Assembly (NCBI GenBank): GCA_010405405.1
Contig: MU004244.1
Span: 313,895-377,894, forward strand
Source of the DNA: Microthyrium microscopicum
Lineage: Eukaryota
Direction: 5' to 3'
DNA length: 64,000 nt
Shown: positions 15,075-26,900 of the stretch, piece after piece
Layout of the letters: each line of letters begins with the position of its first letter
How positions within the stretch are numbered: position 1 is the stretch's first letter
Program-made: the position numbers and the translations under genes
The notes under the pieces: generated by a model
What the model was told of the DNA's origin: nothing
What the model saw: only the letters and a program-made list of their open reading frames with translations
Databases searched by the model: none

Positions 15075-18000
15075 TTATGATGGAGGAGCATCAACTATGA
15101 CACCCTCAAATTCTCGTGACTTGACGTAGTCAATGGTGCGTTGAAAATGCTTGCGTGCGTTCTCGAGTGAGGGTGAGTTGTCGGCAGTGGCGAGGTTGGA
15201 GTGAATGAGTTCGATTAGACCGTTGACGAACCGAGTAGTAATTTGCTCATTTTCCTGCTCAAAGTAGTAGAGATAACGATTCAGTACCTGGTAGGCTTCA
15301 TTAGCAAAATAAAAGCAGGTGTAGAGTATGATCATACCTCGACGAAAAGTTCAACCATGACTGCAGTATCCACAACGGAGTCACTGACACGCAATGCTCG
15401 TTGAAGGCACTCAAGGACTCTTTTGCCATCACGATAAAGCTATTCAAAGTTAGCTGAATGTAGGACGAATAATTGTTCAATACTCACTCCCTTGGGATCG
15501 TTCTCATCCAGCTCTCGTATTTCATTGGCCCACCACAAATGGCTGGCCAGGTATACTGCTCGGCATTGATCTGGCTTCTTGAGCAATTTGCTTCCATGAA
15601 GCGCACACTTCGTTATGAGAGTATCATAATCTTCCTGGTCAAAGTTCCTCGTTTGGTGCAATGCTCCTGCAACCACACAGATCGCTTGGAATTGCGCTCT
15701 CGAGTCGCTGATTACTTCCTCATAAACGGTAAAGGCTTGTGCAAAGAATTCGTATGCCATCTTTCGATGCTTTGTCTGATCGGCAACTTTACCACATGCC
15801 ACAAACAGCCGCAACGCCATATCGTTGAAACCAGTGACCCGGTTATACAATGATGTGAGCATAGCAGTAACGAATTTGTACAGCGATTCGCACTGCGATT
15901 CCCAATTGTCGTCAAGATGTTCTCTAGCTTTGAATTTGCGAGCTAGCTTGAGAGCAGAGAATATGACTGGTGGATATGTGTGTTTTATCCTCTCATTACC
16001 CTCGCCGAAAGCTTTTTGTGTAGTTTGCAAAAGCTATAAAAGTCAGATAATTATCGCCCTGGTCGTTGTCTTACTCACCGATAATTGAATATCATTAACA
16101 GGTCCTTGTATAAGGTGGACGATTCGAGCGAGCCATCCTTGCTCCTCTAAAGTTTCGTCGGTTTCTGCAGACTTTCTATGCATGGGGCCAGATGTGAATC
16201 CGGCTGGTGGCTGTGCTCCTTCTCGAATTATGACTCGCAGAACTTGAAGTGCAGCATTCAGGTTGTCCTGGGAGTCTATTATGATTTGATTCTTGAGTAG
16301 GATTCGTGCCACCTCTCCCGCAACTGCTCGGCGAGTTGGATATGGTTGAGCCTCAAGTAAAGGTATAAAATGAGGAAGAGCCAATGCGGTGAAAGTAGAG
16401 TAATAGATATTGATAGGGGCAAGAAGAAGTTTGAGGACGTTGGCTTGTGAGTTTTGAGAATGAAAGTCGGCACTGTTGGCGTTTTTTGTGACAACCTCGT
16501 GGGCGAAGGAAAAGACTTGATCAACATAGTCAAGACGATCGGGATAAATATTTCTACATCACATTAGCACCAATTTCTAAGGGTATCACAACAACTTACA
16601 ATGCAAGATTCGTAAGTGAGACAAGTAATGCCATTGTGTCCCATACTTGAAGTCTTTGCATTTTGACCAAAGTCATCACTTGTTCATGGAAGATCTCAAA
16701 CAGTTTGATATTATCAGGAATCGCACTTGATGACGAGGGAACAGTGTCTTGGCCATTTGATTTCGTATCTTCGTTTGGGGTTTCGCCGTCCTTTGGAGCT
16801 TCTTGGCCATCTTCTGTTGGTTTGGTTGCCTCTCCATTCTGGTTTTGTTCCGTTGTTGGGAGAGCTGAGGGCTTGGGGGGAGTAATGTGGATGTTTTCGA
16901 GCAGTCCAGCCAGTGATGCTTCTTCTGCCATTTTTCGCTGCTCTGGTGACTTGATTACTGCTTCTCTAGCGGCATATGCCGATAGCCTGTCCATCAAGCC
17001 AATCACTATTGCCTTGACGTTGACTAGCGGATGTAATCGAGCAACAGCAGATAGGAATTGATCCAGTGTATGTAGGTGAAACTCGTCAGGATACACTTGG
17101 ATAATCACTAAGATTATGTTAGTCTCAAGGTTGGTGCTTTGTTAGAAACCGAGGCTGTTCTCACCTTCAAGCAGATATTCTTGAGCGAGGACATCTTTGC
17201 ATTGCACAACCTGCTCCAGTAATGGGCGCAGGATTTGTTTGTAATGTTCCAGATCTACAAGCTCGCCGAGTCTTTCCAGGTTGTTGCCCACCAGCAACTG
17301 CAACTCTCTACGCTCCTTGGTTCTTTGATCTCGTTCTCTCGAATGTCCTTGATGCTGAAGTCGTACCCAAAGTTTGTTCATTTCGACGAAATTCGTCAAA
17401 ATGAAATTGACACTGTCTTGTAGGTTTCCCTCTGGCCCATCCCCAGAGCCTGCAGGCAAGTATGGCTTTGCTTGACCCATCAAGTAGTACCTCAGGAAGA
17501 GACCACGAATTGGTTGCTGAACTCCTCGACTCATTTCCAAGATATCCTTAAGTATTTCTCGTACTGGCGCATCTTCAATTGACATGTATACAGTGCCGAC
17601 GGTGATCATCAAGTATAATCGCGGAATGATATTGCCAGCATATTGTACAAGTTCGTAAAGATCGGCTAGGTGATTGACGGGATGATTGTCTTTCAGATGG
17701 GTGGCAAGGAGTCTTAGAGCATCGAAAACAGCCATGTAAAGCTCATAGTACTACCCAACTGGTAAGAAACCGAGTAGTATGGAGGGTATAGTATCTAACC
17801 TGCTTGGGGCCCAAGGCTGATGTTCGTAGTTCGCTAACGAGTGTTGATCTGCGGATATTCAGTATTATGACAAATGAAGCTTCAGGTGTGCAAGACTAAC
17901 GCGCATTTCAAAGCATCCATCAATTTATTCTACAATATCTGTTAGATACAACTATGAAGCTCGGCCAGGCAGCACCATAACACTTACAGGCTGGTCCAGG

Positions 18001-18313: not shown

Positions 18314-19043
18314 ATGCGGTTATTCAATCCATTACTCGCGATCGCCGCGCTGACCACATCCTCTGCAGCCTTTACGAAAGATGCCCAGAGCGACGATCCG
18401 AACACCATTTCCATATACGCCTGGCCGTTAACAGCAACTGAACCTGTACCTGTCGCAGTCGTCAAATTATCGCATTCTCCCGATTCCGATGCTCCATCTG
18501 CCTCCATATTCAGATACTCCCCTCCTTCGATATCATCTTCCCAGGATGAAACCGTACGAATTGGGATACTTGACCCAGTAACCAAGAAATGGACCGGCTC
18601 TGCGGTAGCCACAGACGCGTTCCAACCAGAATTCGACCGCAAATTCCAGCTCCATCTAGACGAAGCGACAAAGCGAATATGGCACGTCAGTTTGTCTACC
18701 AGTAAAGTCCCAGTTCCAGTTAAGGAGAAGAGTAAGGACAAGAAGGCAAAGGCAAAGACGGATAAGGCAGGCGGAAAGAAGGAACCTCTTCGCAAAGGCG
18801 AAACAACAGTAGAAGTTGTCACTCCATGGGATCATCCGGAACCAATTCTGAATAAGCCCGTTCAACTGAACTTGGATGGAAGAGCTCCAGAGGCACCCGA
18901 AGAACAAAAGTCGTTTCTGCAAAAGTACGTTATTCACTAATCACTAACTGCTTGTAACAAGAACTAACTTTCACAGATACTGGTGGGCTATTCTTATCTT
19001 TTTGGCAGTTAATGTCATGGCTGGTGGTGGAGAAGAGAAATAG
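18314..19043 (+). CDS. Type I ER membrane protein, EMC10-like
   Basis: Signal peptide MRLFNPLLAIAALTTSSAA; PILNKPVQL; EEQKSFLQK|YWWAILIFLAVNVMAGGGEEK* across intron ~18925-18976. Confidence 0.7.
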
Positions 19044-20416: not shown

Positions 20417-21056
20417 GATTGGGGTCGTATATTGGCATAGAACCGATGCTGATGTTGGCTTTATAGTTTGAAAATGAACCCGTCCGGTTGAACATGAATT
20501 CTGAGACACGAAGCGATTGATTCCATGATGACAAAGAGAGTATATAGCTCTTATGTACGACTGACAAAGCCATCACGTCGTCAATGGGCCTTTTGCTGTT
20601 GGCGGATGCCTGCGCATGCGGCGTGTAACGTAGATCCACCTGTGATTACAAATGTCAGATACGATTGATCCGTATGTTTGCCGTTACTGATTAGCTTGAA
20701 TCTGTTGTATCCATACTGCATACTGACTACTAGTAGTGCATACTAGTAGAGTTGGACCTGAACCATAGTACTGGATAGAGCACGCCTACACTCGCAAAAC
20801 TAAAAAAGACATAGCTTTAGATGTTTGGTCCTAAAGCATAGAGTGATACATTATTATCACAAGTACATAGAATATATCTACTCTTACAATATTCAACTTA
20901 ATACTATCTCTGTAGGACCTAGCTCTTCGCGATCCGCCTGCTATCACCAACCCTTCACAGCTCCATGACCCTCTGTCCCAGCCCGCCAAAAATCAAAAGC
21001 TACCCTCCAATATCCATTTCCAAGCATATTACGCCTTTGCTCTATATCTCAAGAGC

Positions 21057-21063
21057 AAAAAAA
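21057..21063 (-). terminator. RNA polymerase III oligo-T terminator of the tRNA gene
   Basis: TTTTTTT on the minus strand, 2 nt after discriminator G73. Confidence 0.8.
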
Positions 21064-21065
21064 GA

Positions 21066-21186
21066 CGACGAGGATGGGACTCGAACCCACAATCTTTGCC
21101 ACCGGAAAGCAACGCCTTACCATTAGGCCTAGTCAGAATTAGTAAAAAGGTGAGTAAATTCGAGTTTGAAAACGTACCACCCCGCC
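21066..21186 (-). tRNA. tRNA-Arg(CCG) interrupted by a 49-nt GT-AG intron (21129-21177) between nt 9 and 10
   Basis: Spliced 72-mer GGCGGGG TG GCCT AATGGTA AGGC G TTGCT TTCCGGT GGCAA AGATT GTGGG TTCGAGT CCCAT CCTCGTC G forms all four stems; intact B box GGTTCGAGTCC; T7 run 2 nt downstream. Confidence 0.9.
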
Positions 21187-21219
21187 AGGTTTGCATCAAC
21201 CAAAATTTCGACATTTTTG

Positions 21220-21227
21220 TATATATA
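21220..21227 (-). promoter_or_regulatory. TATA element upstream of the tRNA gene
   Basis: TATATATA lies 34-41 nt upstream of mature tRNA position 1. Confidence 0.5.
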
Positions 21228-21882
21228 CAGCCACGTAAGAGGCCATCCGCTTTACAGTACCAAGGCCTCCTGAGAAGTTTAAAAAATCATGGTGTTATAG
21301 TTAGAGGCTCTAACATGAAGTTCAAGGTCTTAAAATGTGAATTTGATGGTAGGTGGGCCCTTTACTGAACGACAGCGTTGATTTATTACGAAGCAGGCCT
21401 ACTACACACTCAACCACAAGTACAACCTACCTCATGTTAGTGAAGAAGGAGTATACAATCACTGAACATGTTATAAAAGATATGAAGACAATGTCATGAT
21501 GCAGCAGTATTCAAACATTTCGATTTGGGGGACTCCGCTCAGGAGTCGCGCCAGCAACACATTGATACACTATTCCCAAAGACTAAACCCCCAAGGAAAA
21601 AGACAAGTCGCAAACAAGAAACCATCTTGTCGCGTGAATCATGCCACGCCCGGAGCATATGCCCTTACGCCTTTTTCCCAAAATAAAATAACAAGACCGG
21701 TATATCTACGCCAGCCAGAAACAGGAATTTAGTAGTAAAGATGACAAGAAATCCTTCTTTTCTGGTGTCCGTTTCCGATCCTTCCCTCGTCGTATAAATG
21801 TGTTGGTTTCATGCGTTTTGAATTAAGGTATGTGCAAGAAAATTGGAAAATATGATGACCCTCAAATAGAACAGAGCACGAT

Positions 21883-23973
21883 TTACATGACTCGCTTGCG
21901 CTTGCTGCCACCGTTATCGCCCATTTCTTCTTCAATGACGGTGTCGCCTGCTGGGTTCAGTAGTCCGTGAAGATTGCTTGCCATGCTGCTACGGCGTGTA
22001 GGTGGGCCTCCCGAGTCGAAGCCGCTACCAAAGCTTTTCGCAAAGCCTGGGAAGCGGGATCCAGGTACCGCCCAAGCAGATTCGGGTCCTGTACCAGCGA
22101 CAGCGGCGATTGGATCCAGGCTACCAGGCGGTGGTGTCTTGGTCGATGATGGACCCCGAATCTCGTAGTTGGCCAGGGTTTGTCGGATCTCATGGTCAGC
22201 TACGGGGCCGCGAGCAGGTGAGGATGGCCATGCGCTCGACGTATGTCCACTTGCATACGGAGAACCTGTAGGAATGTCTGTCGGCCCACCTTGCCAACCA
22301 TGAAGACGAATATCCGCGCTGGTATGTCGTCTCGAAAGATTGGCTGGTGGAGAAGTAACGGTGGCTAAGGGATGTTGAGGTGGTGGTTGTATCAAAGCCG
22401 GTGGAGGTGGTGGTGGCGGAATGCGGCCAGACGAAGGAGAATATGAGTTATTACTTCCAATGCTTCCATATCGCCTAGGCGAGATTGAAAGATGAGAAGC
22501 AATTGGTGCTCGGAAAGAGCCACTTTGTTGACCCCTTGGTTCGAGAATGGTTGGCTGCGACGGTCTTCGCTGATTGATATCTGGAGCGGGCATTTGTCTA
22601 GGTGAAAGCGGTGCACCATTTTCCTGTAGATGGTTACCAAAAATTTGATGCTGCGGTTGACCAAATGTTGGACGCGACGCTTCCTGAGGACTAGGATCGG
22701 GAGATTCAACGCTTCGCAGCACATCGGTCTGTCGAGCAATTTCTCTTTGCATCATCGCGACTATAATAGGTCAGTGAGCTTCTAAAAAAAAGACAAAAGC
22801 ACTTACTATCTTTGTGGATTTGACTCTCTGGATCTGATATCACGGTCGTTAGGTAGGTTGCCAGATCTTGATTCCACTACATTTGTTAGTCACATGTGTT
22901 ATACATTTGAATGTTGTATATTACCTGATGACATCTCATGAGACCATCGGAGAGTATATGGCACTTGTTTGTCATATAAACTAGGGTATCCTCTGATCTT
23001 CCTAATCTAGCATGAACATCATAATAAGTGTGCTCCAGAAGACTAAGCCGGTCCTCCAGAGTGGTGTGCGTAGGCTGTTCTTGATGGGTGACTCCAATCG
23101 GCGTTTGAGGGTGAGCAGGCGCAAGGGACTTGGGTCCAGTCGGAAATGTATCGCGATTTATGAGCGTGTGTCTTGATGCACGACGCTTGATCTCTCTCAG
23201 TCCCATGATATCGCCTCTCTTGAAACTCCCATTGCCGTGTCTAAACTCCCAGAGTGTAGAGTCTGGTGCACCATTATGGAAAACATCGCTTACTGCTTGA
23301 CGCGTCAGTAAGCATCCACTGTACGTCAATTTCCCTGTTGCCATGGTCTTACCTTTATGAAAGCCATACATGTTCAATTGTCGGACAAAAGATGAGATAT
23401 TTGTATGTTTGAAATATTGTCTAAAGATGTCAGTAACAGAATGCGCATCAAGTCTTGGTTCAACTTACGCAAGAACCTTTGCAAATTCTTGGCTCGGGGA
23501 CATGACAAAGCTGTCATTGCTACTCGACCAAGAAATAAGATGTTGTATGCTCTGATCTTCAAGCATGCTGAAATGTAATTAGCAACGCTTTTGCATTTGA
23601 TATGATACCAAACCTACTTGTACAGTTTATGAATAAAAGCTGTTTGAACAACTTTCGGTTGTTGCGCCGCAGCAGCAGCACCAACTGAAACGGTCATTTG
23701 ATGTCCATTCATGTTGCCATTGGTTGTTGGTATGCCCTCATCACTATTAGTCGATTTGTCTGAATGCCTCTCATTAGGCGGACTGCTGGTTGGAGGAGGC
23801 ATCGACATGTTATTTGTCGGCGTTATATCCATGGGATCAGGTTCTGAAATAGTGGAGGGAAGTTGGACTCTTGGAGAAGCAGAAGTTGAGGAGAGAATAG
23901 GAATCGATTTCTGATGCGGCGAAATGTGATCCGTGGGAAAGGCGGATCGGGGCATGGACTCTGTAGTTGCCAT
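21883..23973 (-). CDS. SFL1: HSF-type DNA-binding transcription factor, Sfl1-like
   Basis: QPKVVQTAFIHKLY|SMLEDQSIQHLISWS...QYFKHTNISSFVRQLNMYGFHK|VSDVFH...WEFRHGNGSFKRGD; coiled coil; Pro/Ser-rich tail with RRHTSADIR. Confidence 0.85.
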
Positions 23974-26900
23974 ATCTTTAGTCTACGAGTCGCGTAAGGG
24001 TTGGAACGAAGTATGCGTTGCTAGGGGTGTATAAAAAGTCGTGAAATGTAATAAGCCGGCCCGCGGTCGCATCGCCAGACAAAAGTACTCGTGGAAACTA
24101 ATGAGCCAGCTAAGGTATAGCGTCGTAGAGCAAAGGCGAATCTTGTAAGCTCATGTGAACATGATCTGTGAATGCGAAGCGTTTGGTGTAAGGGAGCGAA
24201 CGAATGATGGTAGGCGTAAATGGCAAGGCACCGAGCGTCGTGTATGATCCAAGGCTATCGAAGCAGGAAGCGGCGCAAAAAACAGATATTGTGTCCAGCA
24301 ACTGAGCAGTGAAAATAGATCCGGCGCAATTGATCAAAGACTTGAAGGCAGCGTATACAGCGGAAGCGGGGATCGATTGGGGTCGAGAGCGGAGAGGACG
24401 GAGGTGAAGAAAAGCCCAAGTAGCACGTCAAGGGGCAGTTGTGGTAGAGACAGCCCTCATACACGGCAAAAAGAGAAAAAAGGTAGAGGAGTAGAGAAAA
24501 GGTCGAGGATGCTGGAGGTTGGAGGTTGAGGAGAGTATGGAGTAGAGTGTGTAGGAAGTAGCGATCAGACTCGAGACAGTGCACTTGCAGGTGGCAGTTG
24601 CAAGTGGCCGAAGTTGAGAAGGAACGAGCGCGCGCGCAAGGAAGGAGCTGCTCGGTGGGAGTTGGGAAGGAACTTTGACGTTGGATGGTGGTTGCTGCAA
24701 AAGGAAAGAGGCGCTACCAGGGGACAACTTCCAATGGAGGAAAGACCAAATGAGTATTAGAGCAACGCCGTTGGCTGTAAGAGGCGGTTTGGTGGTATTT
24801 TCTGGCAATCGATATTGATCAATGGCTTTTCGCTTTTTCGCTTTCTCTTACAATTCTTTTCAGGTTCAAAGTGCCGTAGGCATTGATGGTAGGTATGCAC
24901 TTCTTTGCTTGTTCAGTCTTGTCTTTGTGCTTGGCTGGTTGGCATGCGTGCTTGAATCGTATATCGCACCTTTATTGTCGCTTCTTTTGCTTGGAAGGCG
25001 TTGGTTTTCGTTTAAAAGTACCGCCTTGGGAGACAATTGATGTCTCTTATCACAGCAAGCTTTTTCTTTGCTTCGTTCAAGGCTCTAGCGAGAAGCGATG
25101 TAGTTGAAAGCGTGGCAATCAACGGCGGCAGTGTCAGTCAGATTGGCGTGGAAAACGTGCCGAAGAGCCTTGGTTTTAGTATGTCGGCTGAATTACAAGT
25201 TAATCAGAGGTCATTGCAATATATGCTCGAAATAAAAGACTCGGATGCGCCAGGTTAAGTTACAGCCAGAGCCACCTGTTTGTCGGAGCTCGCCTTGTCT
25301 ATCGCTGCTGGGTCGCCCGCATTGGAGCATTCATTGACTTCACACGCCGTAATAAATTCTAGATCGCCCATGCCAGTCCCGCAACAATGCCTGTGTTGCT
25401 CCTCCGTCCGCTGTGGTATGTGTATCAGCAATCCACTAGGCCTGGACGCTTTCATTATTCAACATCCCACTACCGTACCCCAGGTCTGCATACCGGTACA
25501 TTCATACACCAGCACTTGAGACTATAACCACCTCGAAGACCGCTTGACCGTCCAAGTGGACTATATCGTCAATTACAATGCGTCTTAGAGTATGGCTACT
25601 TGGCATGTCGCGACAGTTAGTAAAGTGTCTCATGGGGTTCTATCGGAGTATTACATGTGGGACTGCTAAAAGTATCATATGAAGCAACCATATATGCCCT
25701 GCTTCCATCCCAACTAGTATATTTAAGCGATTCCATGTTGGGAAATGATGCGCAATCCGCCCGCGCTCCTACGATCTTGGATGCCCGAGAAAGAGCCTCA
25801 GGGCAACTGCCAGTCTGCCAGCAGTGGCAATGTATTTTGATAGTACCGCTGTATTGGGATACGCTTGGTGTTGACTTTGAAGAATTATTAGCTATTTGGT
25901 TATATTGTATATCTCCACCATATCACGCCAAATATATAAAACATCATTCAGTGCTTCCTGGTGTGTCTCTCCTGAATCTTGGCTGGCTGCAAACTGTCAA
26001 ACTAGAAGCCGTTTTTTTACCTGGGGCTCACGCGGTCAGCCTTCTGTCAATGGTGTCAAAATGCCAGAGGCGTTGATGGCGTACATCTCAAACAGGCGAC
26101 GTCCACAAGCGATGCAGCCGTAGGCAAGCCGATCCAAACCTGTGCAGCATCGGTTGTTACATCTTTCTTCTCCTATCTCAATCTCAACCAAGGCTAAATT
26201 TTCTCCATTCTTTGCCTTCCCTTTTCACCACATCTGATTCTAACAAAGCAAAGGTTTTTCCGTCTCCAACAGAAAAACAATAACACTCGGCCATTCCGAA
26301 TGTGCAGAAGACTCGAGCCACCTTCCCCATTCGAGGCCTTTAAAACGTGGAATGGCCAAGTGTCTTGCATGTTCTAGAAGGCTGACATGCCAAATCCCGC
26401 CTAGTGTATTCTGACATGGCACGCCGCTTGGGATCTAGCTGCCACAGGAGGATTAACATTTCAATGAAGTCATTTTACCTGGCGGACCAGATACCCGTCT
26501 TTCCTGTTGTCTTTCAAGGGGCCTACACGAGCTTGACGAGGGTTGTACTCTGTGGTGGTGGGCATGATTCAACCTAATGCCCACCCCTATCCAAACATAC
26601 CTACACCATGGATCCCATTCTTTAAACCTGAAAGCCTTCACCTGAAAATCCACGAGTAGTTGTTAATGCTTGGTACGTCTTCCCGCCTGAACCAGTGGTT
26701 GGCCAAAAGCCCGTGAGCCACCTGCACAAAAGCCCGACGGATTCGTCCACTGAGAGGTGTGGAGAAATAAGAAATCAAAGCCCGTTCGTCGCTCCGTGCC
26801 CAATCGTGACATGTCCGCAGTAGCGCGATGCTTTTTTTCGACGACTGGCGTACCAGCAGCGTGGCCTTGCTACAGGCATTGTCTCCCTCTAGCTTACCAG

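Follow-up and report, generated by a model that had tools for sequence, protein, structure and literature searches.

A gene for tRNA-Arg(CCG) in an ascomycete fungus is split after its ninth nucleotide by a 49-nt insert that has the appearance of a spliceosomal intron. The gene lies on the minus strand of the window, by which we mean the whole 64-kb stretch of DNA that was analysed. We see an even chance that the gene carries a genuine U2-type intron and that maturation of its tRNA depends on the spliceosome. Read in the direction of the gene, the locus consists of a 9-nt segment (GGCGGGGTG), the insert, which runs from GTACGT to CTGACTAG, and a 63-nt 3′ part, which runs from GCCTAATGG to CCTCGTCG (Table 1). 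The cloverleaf with anticodon CCG forms perfectly, but only after removal of the insert, and every stem pair of the spliced tRNA (21/21) is standard.

Table 1. Features of the split tRNA-Arg(CCG) gene and its surroundings (positions are those of the window).
Feature	Position	Strand	Details
Exon 1, tRNA nt 1-9: acceptor 5′ strand GGCGGGG, U8, G9	21178-21186	-	pairs 7/7 with CCTCGTC at 21067-21073
Spliceosomal-type intron, 49 nt	21129-21177	-	length, donor, branch and acceptor compared with 11 RNA-verified introns
Intron donor GTACGT	21172-21177	-	
Intron branch TACTAAT	21138-21144	-	branch A 21139, 10 nt from 3′ end
Intron acceptor TAG	21129-21131	-	
T5 run within intron	21144-21148	-	potential premature Pol III terminator
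T4 run within intron	21169-21172	-	
Exon 2, tRNA nt 10-73	21066-21128	-	D arm, anticodon arm (CCG), variable loop, T arm, acceptor 3′ strand, discriminator G
T7 run, Pol III-type terminator	21057-21063	-	starts 3 nt past discriminator
TATATATA box	21220-21227	-	-41 to -34 relative to exon 1
Unbroken cover by RNA-derived contig X1 record 4	20863-22760	-	
HSF-type gene	21883-25500	-	Pfam HSF_DNA-bind; five RNA-verified introns, 46-60 nt; stop codon TAA 21883-21885

An interruption between nucleotides 9 and 10 of a tRNA-Arg(CCG) had been claimed in an earlier note on this DNA, and both its coordinates and the cloverleaf are borne out. The comparison of spliced and unspliced forms that the note proposed was carried out with ARAGORN. 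This program reports no tRNA in the whole window and none in the unspliced locus, and it calls exactly one gene, a tRNA-Arg(CCG), after in-silico removal of positions 21129-21177. The Rfam tRNA model (RF00005) gives a match to the unspliced locus that is limited to positions 21066-21134 and reaches 41.8 bits; intronless homologues of the gene score 58-64 bits on the same model. In this truncated match, GACUAG, the final 6 nt of the insert, serves as a pseudo-acceptor strand, and three positions of the model are deleted. Thus, the prediction that standard finders would miss or truncate the gene holds for both programs, given that ARAGORN finds nothing and Rfam returns a partial match with a misplaced 5′ end. 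The note was also right that the acceptor 5′ strand has no substitute in the final 9 nt of the insert, which by our own count form three of seven pairs in register.

Two pairings that involve the insert can be drawn in the unspliced RNA. Out of register, GACTAG (21129-21134, minus strand), which is the segment caught by the Rfam model, pairs at five of six positions with the 3′ acceptor strand, and it may act as a decoy helix before splicing. In addition, a pairing of 12 positions is possible between the intron segment ACTCGAATTTAC (21154-21165, minus strand) and the T arm GTGGGTTCGAGT (21074-21090, minus strand). This second pairing is the main feature of the MFE fold calculated for the unspliced precursor and would block the cloverleaf before splicing, but the chance expectation for a perfect complement of 7 nt is about 0.1-0.2 by our own estimate and the pairing may mean nothing.

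To define what a spliceosomal intron looks like in this DNA, we used 11 GT-AG segments that are skipped by the contigs of a sequencing run termed X1, within the 9 kb of the window that were examined. The kind of run had only been guessed beforehand, and X1 was judged to be RNA-derived from these 11 skips. Compared with this standard, the insert shows all the traits that mark U2-type spliceosomal introns in this DNA. The verified introns are 46-60 nt long, and the insert is 49 nt long. Their donors are mostly GTAAGT-like (GTAAGT itself in four), and the GTACGT donor of the insert recurs in the verified intron at 18925-18976, which is held by a plus-strand gene. The distance from the branch A of a CTRAY motif to the 3′ end is 9-12 nt in 9 of the 11 introns and 10 nt in the insert, where the motif reads ACTAAT. 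Acceptors are TAG in seven and CAG in four of the verified introns, and the insert ends in TAG. The two verified introns in which a regular expression finds no CTRAY branch motif are those at 17751-17799 and 17849-17900. Five RNA-verified introns lie in a Vps35 gene (Pfam PF03635; 16554-17987, minus strand).

These data agree with the claim that the insert matches the mRNA introns of the window in size and signals. The example that had been chosen for that comparison, the intron at 2569, does share its first 8 nt with the insert but lies outside the part of the window examined with RNA.

Several origins of the insert were considered. A second copy of more than 14 nt, which was looked for as a sign of an introner-like family, does not occur within the 64-kb window. 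An origin by tandem duplication was rejected by eye, since the ends of the intron are unlike the adjoining ends of the exons. Derivation from the 5′ flank of an ancestral tRNA gene, with which the insert shares a TTCAAA-like motif, was also rejected, because a local alignment of the two is no better than alignments of shuffled sequences (p = 0.29).

The homologues of this tRNA gene provide a second case. A search of metagenome sequences with a degenerate pattern of tRNA nt 10-62 recovered 24 loci that fall into 19 distinct classes; the pattern demanded an intact tRNA body, and decayed copies were invisible to it. The same pattern gave 0 matches in contigs of prokaryote genomes. The nine 5′ bases directly abut the tRNA body in 23 of the 24 metagenome loci. 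The exception, a second fungal gene termed L004 (metagenome contig Ga0210392_10129783, L004:335-463), has a 56-nt insert that begins with GTGAGT, carries TTCTAAC and ends with ATAG. In this gene the acceptor strand GGCCTGG is followed by the insert, then by TG and the D arm, which places the putative intron between nucleotides 7 and 8. ARAGORN calls a tRNA-Arg(CCG) in L004 only after removal of the insert. The Rfam match to L004 is truncated and scores 45.5 bits, whereas L007, L009 and L010, which are intronless and have the same mature sequence, score 58.0 bits. The exons of L004 equal the mature sequence of six intronless loci (L007, L009, L010, L013, L020 and L024). These genes supply the sequence before insertion. 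By eye, no T run in the L004 insert reaches four nucleotides.

We rejected homology between the insert of the window and that of L004, whether as an old intron that has slid or as members of a mobile family (shuffle p = 0.125). The two inserts align with a score of 5.5, and the window insert aligns with the 11 verified introns with scores of -2.5 to 11. Because the inserts resemble each other no more than unrelated introns do and occupy different positions, they point to two independent and precise gains. With intronless homologues at hand to show the uninterrupted sequence, this pair of gains in one tRNA family illustrates cleanly how an intron can be acquired with precision in nature.

The tRNA of the window is identical over nt 10-65 to the intronless loci L012 and L022. 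Relative to L012, whose body is identical, it differs at acceptor pairs 4-7 only, and each of these pairs is changed on both sides. This comparison indicates that exon 1 has co-varied with a 3′ strand that is located 112 nt away in the DNA. Five distinct mature sequences are represented among these genes, and all 21 stem pairs are standard in each of them. Because these pairs are intact and exon 1 carries four compensatory changes, no decay is visible.

A resemblance of this kind could arise by chance or through an artefact of assembly, and a scan of very many windows will yield rare coincidences. However, our own calculation from local base composition gives a chance of about 6e-8 per orphan tRNA body for all features together, namely a pairing 7-mer, T8, R9, GT, AG, a CTRAY branch at the local distance and an insert of 46-60 nt. 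Moreover, the second case, L004, resides in unrelated DNA, and independent RNA-derived data carry a sequence of the window locus that is identical to the assembly. We consider this explanation hardly credible.

Another alternative is that the insert is a non-canonical tRNA intron that is cut by TSEN and sealed by a ligase, as in archaea, Cyanidioschyzon and nucleomorphs, and that its GT and AG ends look like splice sites only incidentally. In archaea, bulge-helix-bulge (BHB) introns occupy various non-canonical positions, one of them as far 5′ as 3/4, and algae provide eukaryotic cases, according to a review (PMC4090602). The inserts examined here, at positions 9/10 in the window and 7/8 in L004 rather than 37/38, were nevertheless rejected as substrates of this kind, because the BHB helices fail. 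When the canonical hBHBh′ arrangement is imposed, the central 4-bp helix forms two of four pairs in the window gene and one of four in L004, and the intron-intron helix forms one of four pairs in both. Also, the MFE folds contain no BHB. A TSEN substrate would furthermore need to have acquired the full set of spliceosomal signals by coincidence twice, and we find this possibility very unlikely.

The tRNA locus is transcribed. Record 4 of X1 (4906 nt) covers it without a break or differing letters and retains the 49-nt insert. The HSF-type gene upstream has five GT-AG introns that this contig skips, and a contig that spans two genes in this manner need not be a single transcript. By our own reading of depth bins, positions 20481-20862 are silent, and so the cover of the tRNA locus is not DNA background. 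None of the X1 contigs has a joint at 21129-21177; such contigs drop minor forms and cannot show a mature tRNA or the strand over the tRNA. Hence, the unspliced form exists in RNA, and the contig data are no proof that the spliced form is absent. RNA cover extends about 1 kb beyond the stop codon of the HSF-type gene, through the tRNA locus and on to position 20863. An AATAAA sequence is present at 21382-21387, upstream of the tRNA, and the RNA distal to it may stem from read-through or from a transcript of its own, which could be antisense.

Retention of the insert in the sole RNA contig over the locus would also be expected if the gene yields no tRNA at all. In this alternative, a real spliceosomal intron has been gained in a redundant copy of tRNA-Arg(CCG), for example within Pol II read-through, and the intact look of the gene reflects a recent event or gene conversion. 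We hold this to be a serious possibility, although one short of an even chance. The T5 run in the intron is in keeping with a dead gene, as is the lack of orthologous conservation, since none of the 24 metagenome loci is an orthologue with an intron at a conserved position and both intron-bearing genes are singletons. A review treats eukaryotic tRNA genes with odd insertions as mostly pseudogenes among redundant copies (PMC4090602), and decayed copies would have escaped a search pattern that requires an intact body. Against these points stand two independent, precise gains among 25 loci with intact bodies (that of the window included). In neither case do the exons, the splice signals, the TATA box or the terminator carry a damaging change. 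Genes that were dead on arrival would thus need a very high rate of intron gain in a single tRNA family.

The flanks of the gene bear on how a precursor that includes exon 1 might be made. For yeast-type Pol III transcription, a start directed by the A box and B box would fall inside the intron, and exon 1 would be lost. Of 18 intronless homologue classes, 12 have TATA-like motifs within -49 to -36, and the window gene has its TATATATA box at -41. Because this distance is within the range of the homologues, the box is positioned relative to exon 1 rather than to the tRNA body. In some fungi, upstream TATA boxes are reported to matter for the function of tRNA genes (PMC3978253). In many of the intronless homologues (L001-L023), a TTCAAA(A) motif and a leader rich in pyrimidines come after a TATA-like box near -45. 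This motif and leader region, which extends from about -40 to -17 relative to the start of the tRNA, may be where Pol III starts in these fungi, which would imply unusually long 5′ leaders.

Downstream of the tRNA, 12 of the 19 homologue classes have T5 as their first run of T nucleotides. Runs like the T4 and T5 of the insert are present in one of the 11 verified mRNA introns. Pol III should often stop inside the intron as a consequence of its T5 run.

If maturation is indeed spliceosome-dependent, which is the explanation we favor, a U2-type intron would have been gained between nucleotides 9 and 10, most likely by a precise event that resembles reverse splicing. The precursor would probably be made from a TATA-directed Pol III start just upstream of exon 1, comparable to that of fission yeast U6. 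The spliceosome would then remove the 49 nt, and a mature tRNA would be possible only afterwards, when the acceptor stem could close and RNase P, RNase Z and the CCA-adding enzyme could complete the molecule. Because the intronic T5 run should stop part of Pol III, we also consider, as an alternative or additional source of precursor, Pol II transcription that continues through the locus from the HSF-type gene upstream. Spliced molecules from such a source might fold as a tRNA and be cut out, in which case poly(A)-type contigs would show the unspliced form only. That splicing occurs, which polymerase supplies the precursor and how the intron was gained are matters that we infer.

A bolder proposal, which we regard as improbable, is that such genes form a recurrent and selected class of spliceosome-dependent tRNA genes in filamentous ascomycetes that is invisible to tRNA finders. 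In the window, Pol II transcripts extending beyond the HSF-type gene would be the source of the tRNA. Once splicing had permitted the cloverleaf to form, RNase P and RNase Z would excise it and so separate the mRNA from its tail. A single splicing event might thereby decide between a stable mRNA for a stress factor and a tRNA that decodes CGG.

Genes for noncoding RNAs other than tRNA carry spliceosomal introns. A review (PMC5855946) covers those in U6 genes of S. pombe and many yeasts (Tani and Ohshima 1989, 1991; Canzler 2016) and cites work on those in the U1, U2 and U5 genes of Rhodotorula hasegawae and in rRNA genes (Takahashi 1993, 1996; Bhattacharya 2000). The tRNA gene resembles fungal U6 genes in that a small, structured RNA gene of the Pol III type harbors a short intron with canonical 5′ splice, branch and 3′ splice sites that is otherwise unconserved. 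In both systems the insertions are species-specific and mutually unrelated, and reverse splicing has been proposed as their origin in U6. However, U6 is located in the catalytic center of the spliceosome, which explains why it is targeted, and a tRNA has no such link. Furthermore, splicing of S. pombe U6 was shown by experiment, whereas the tRNA case of the window is known from the anatomy of the gene, and its host belongs to a class of RNAs whose introns otherwise all go by TSEN. The introns of R. hasegawae U1, U2 and U5 and of rRNA offer another parallel, as they demonstrate that spliceosomal introns settle in non-mRNA genes, even off the catalytic center. Unlike the tRNA, snRNAs other than U6 are products of Pol II and rRNA is a product of Pol I, and none of these hosts is a tRNA.

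The review on fungal U6 describes its introns as species-specific insertions with canonical signals and gives precedent that the spliceosome can act on a Pol III transcript (PMC5855946). The same review lists U6, U2, U5, U1 and rRNA as noncoding RNA genes with spliceosomal introns, and tRNA is not in this list. The BHB introns of tRNA genes in archaea, Cyanidioschyzon merolae and nucleomorphs share with the window gene an interruption outside position 37/38 that causes finders to miss or truncate the gene (PMC4090602 and PMC3978253). Those introns need a bulge-helix-bulge and the splicing endonuclease, whereas the insert of the window has GT, CTRAY and AG and no BHB. Insertions in the D or T arm also occur in eukaryotic tRNA pseudogenes (PMC4090602), which are similar in that one gene of a possibly redundant family has been hit. 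They are unlike the present gene, which has a complete intron of the local type whose exact removal from GT to AG restores the tRNA, and which shows no damage to exons, TATA box or terminator.

Searches of the main texts of open-access papers and bioRxiv preprints turned up no account of a tRNA gene with a spliceosomal intron, in agreement with the expectation that this case has no known precedent. One phrase match reads ‘non-spliceosomal tRNA introns’, and the word stem ‘spliceosom’ is absent from PMC4090602. Two other papers present spliceosomal introns and tRNA introns as separate classes (PMC12530127, PMC10275265).

Genes of this kind would systematically escape tRNA censuses: in the present cases ARAGORN reports nothing, the Rfam score falls by about 12-20 bits and the 5′ end of the match is misplaced or truncated. 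The present case would extend the spliceosomal introns of U6 and other noncoding RNA genes to tRNA. If the explanation is true, the division between tRNA introns and spliceosomal introns, each with its own machine, breaks, and the list of spliced noncoding RNAs (U6, U1, U2, U5 and rRNA) gains an adaptor molecule. CGG accounts for 5 of the 74 Arg codons in four local ORFs, and decoding of this rare codon would be tied to the capacity for splicing. Taken together, the genes of the window and of L004 suggest that some tRNAs may need the machinery that splices mRNA.
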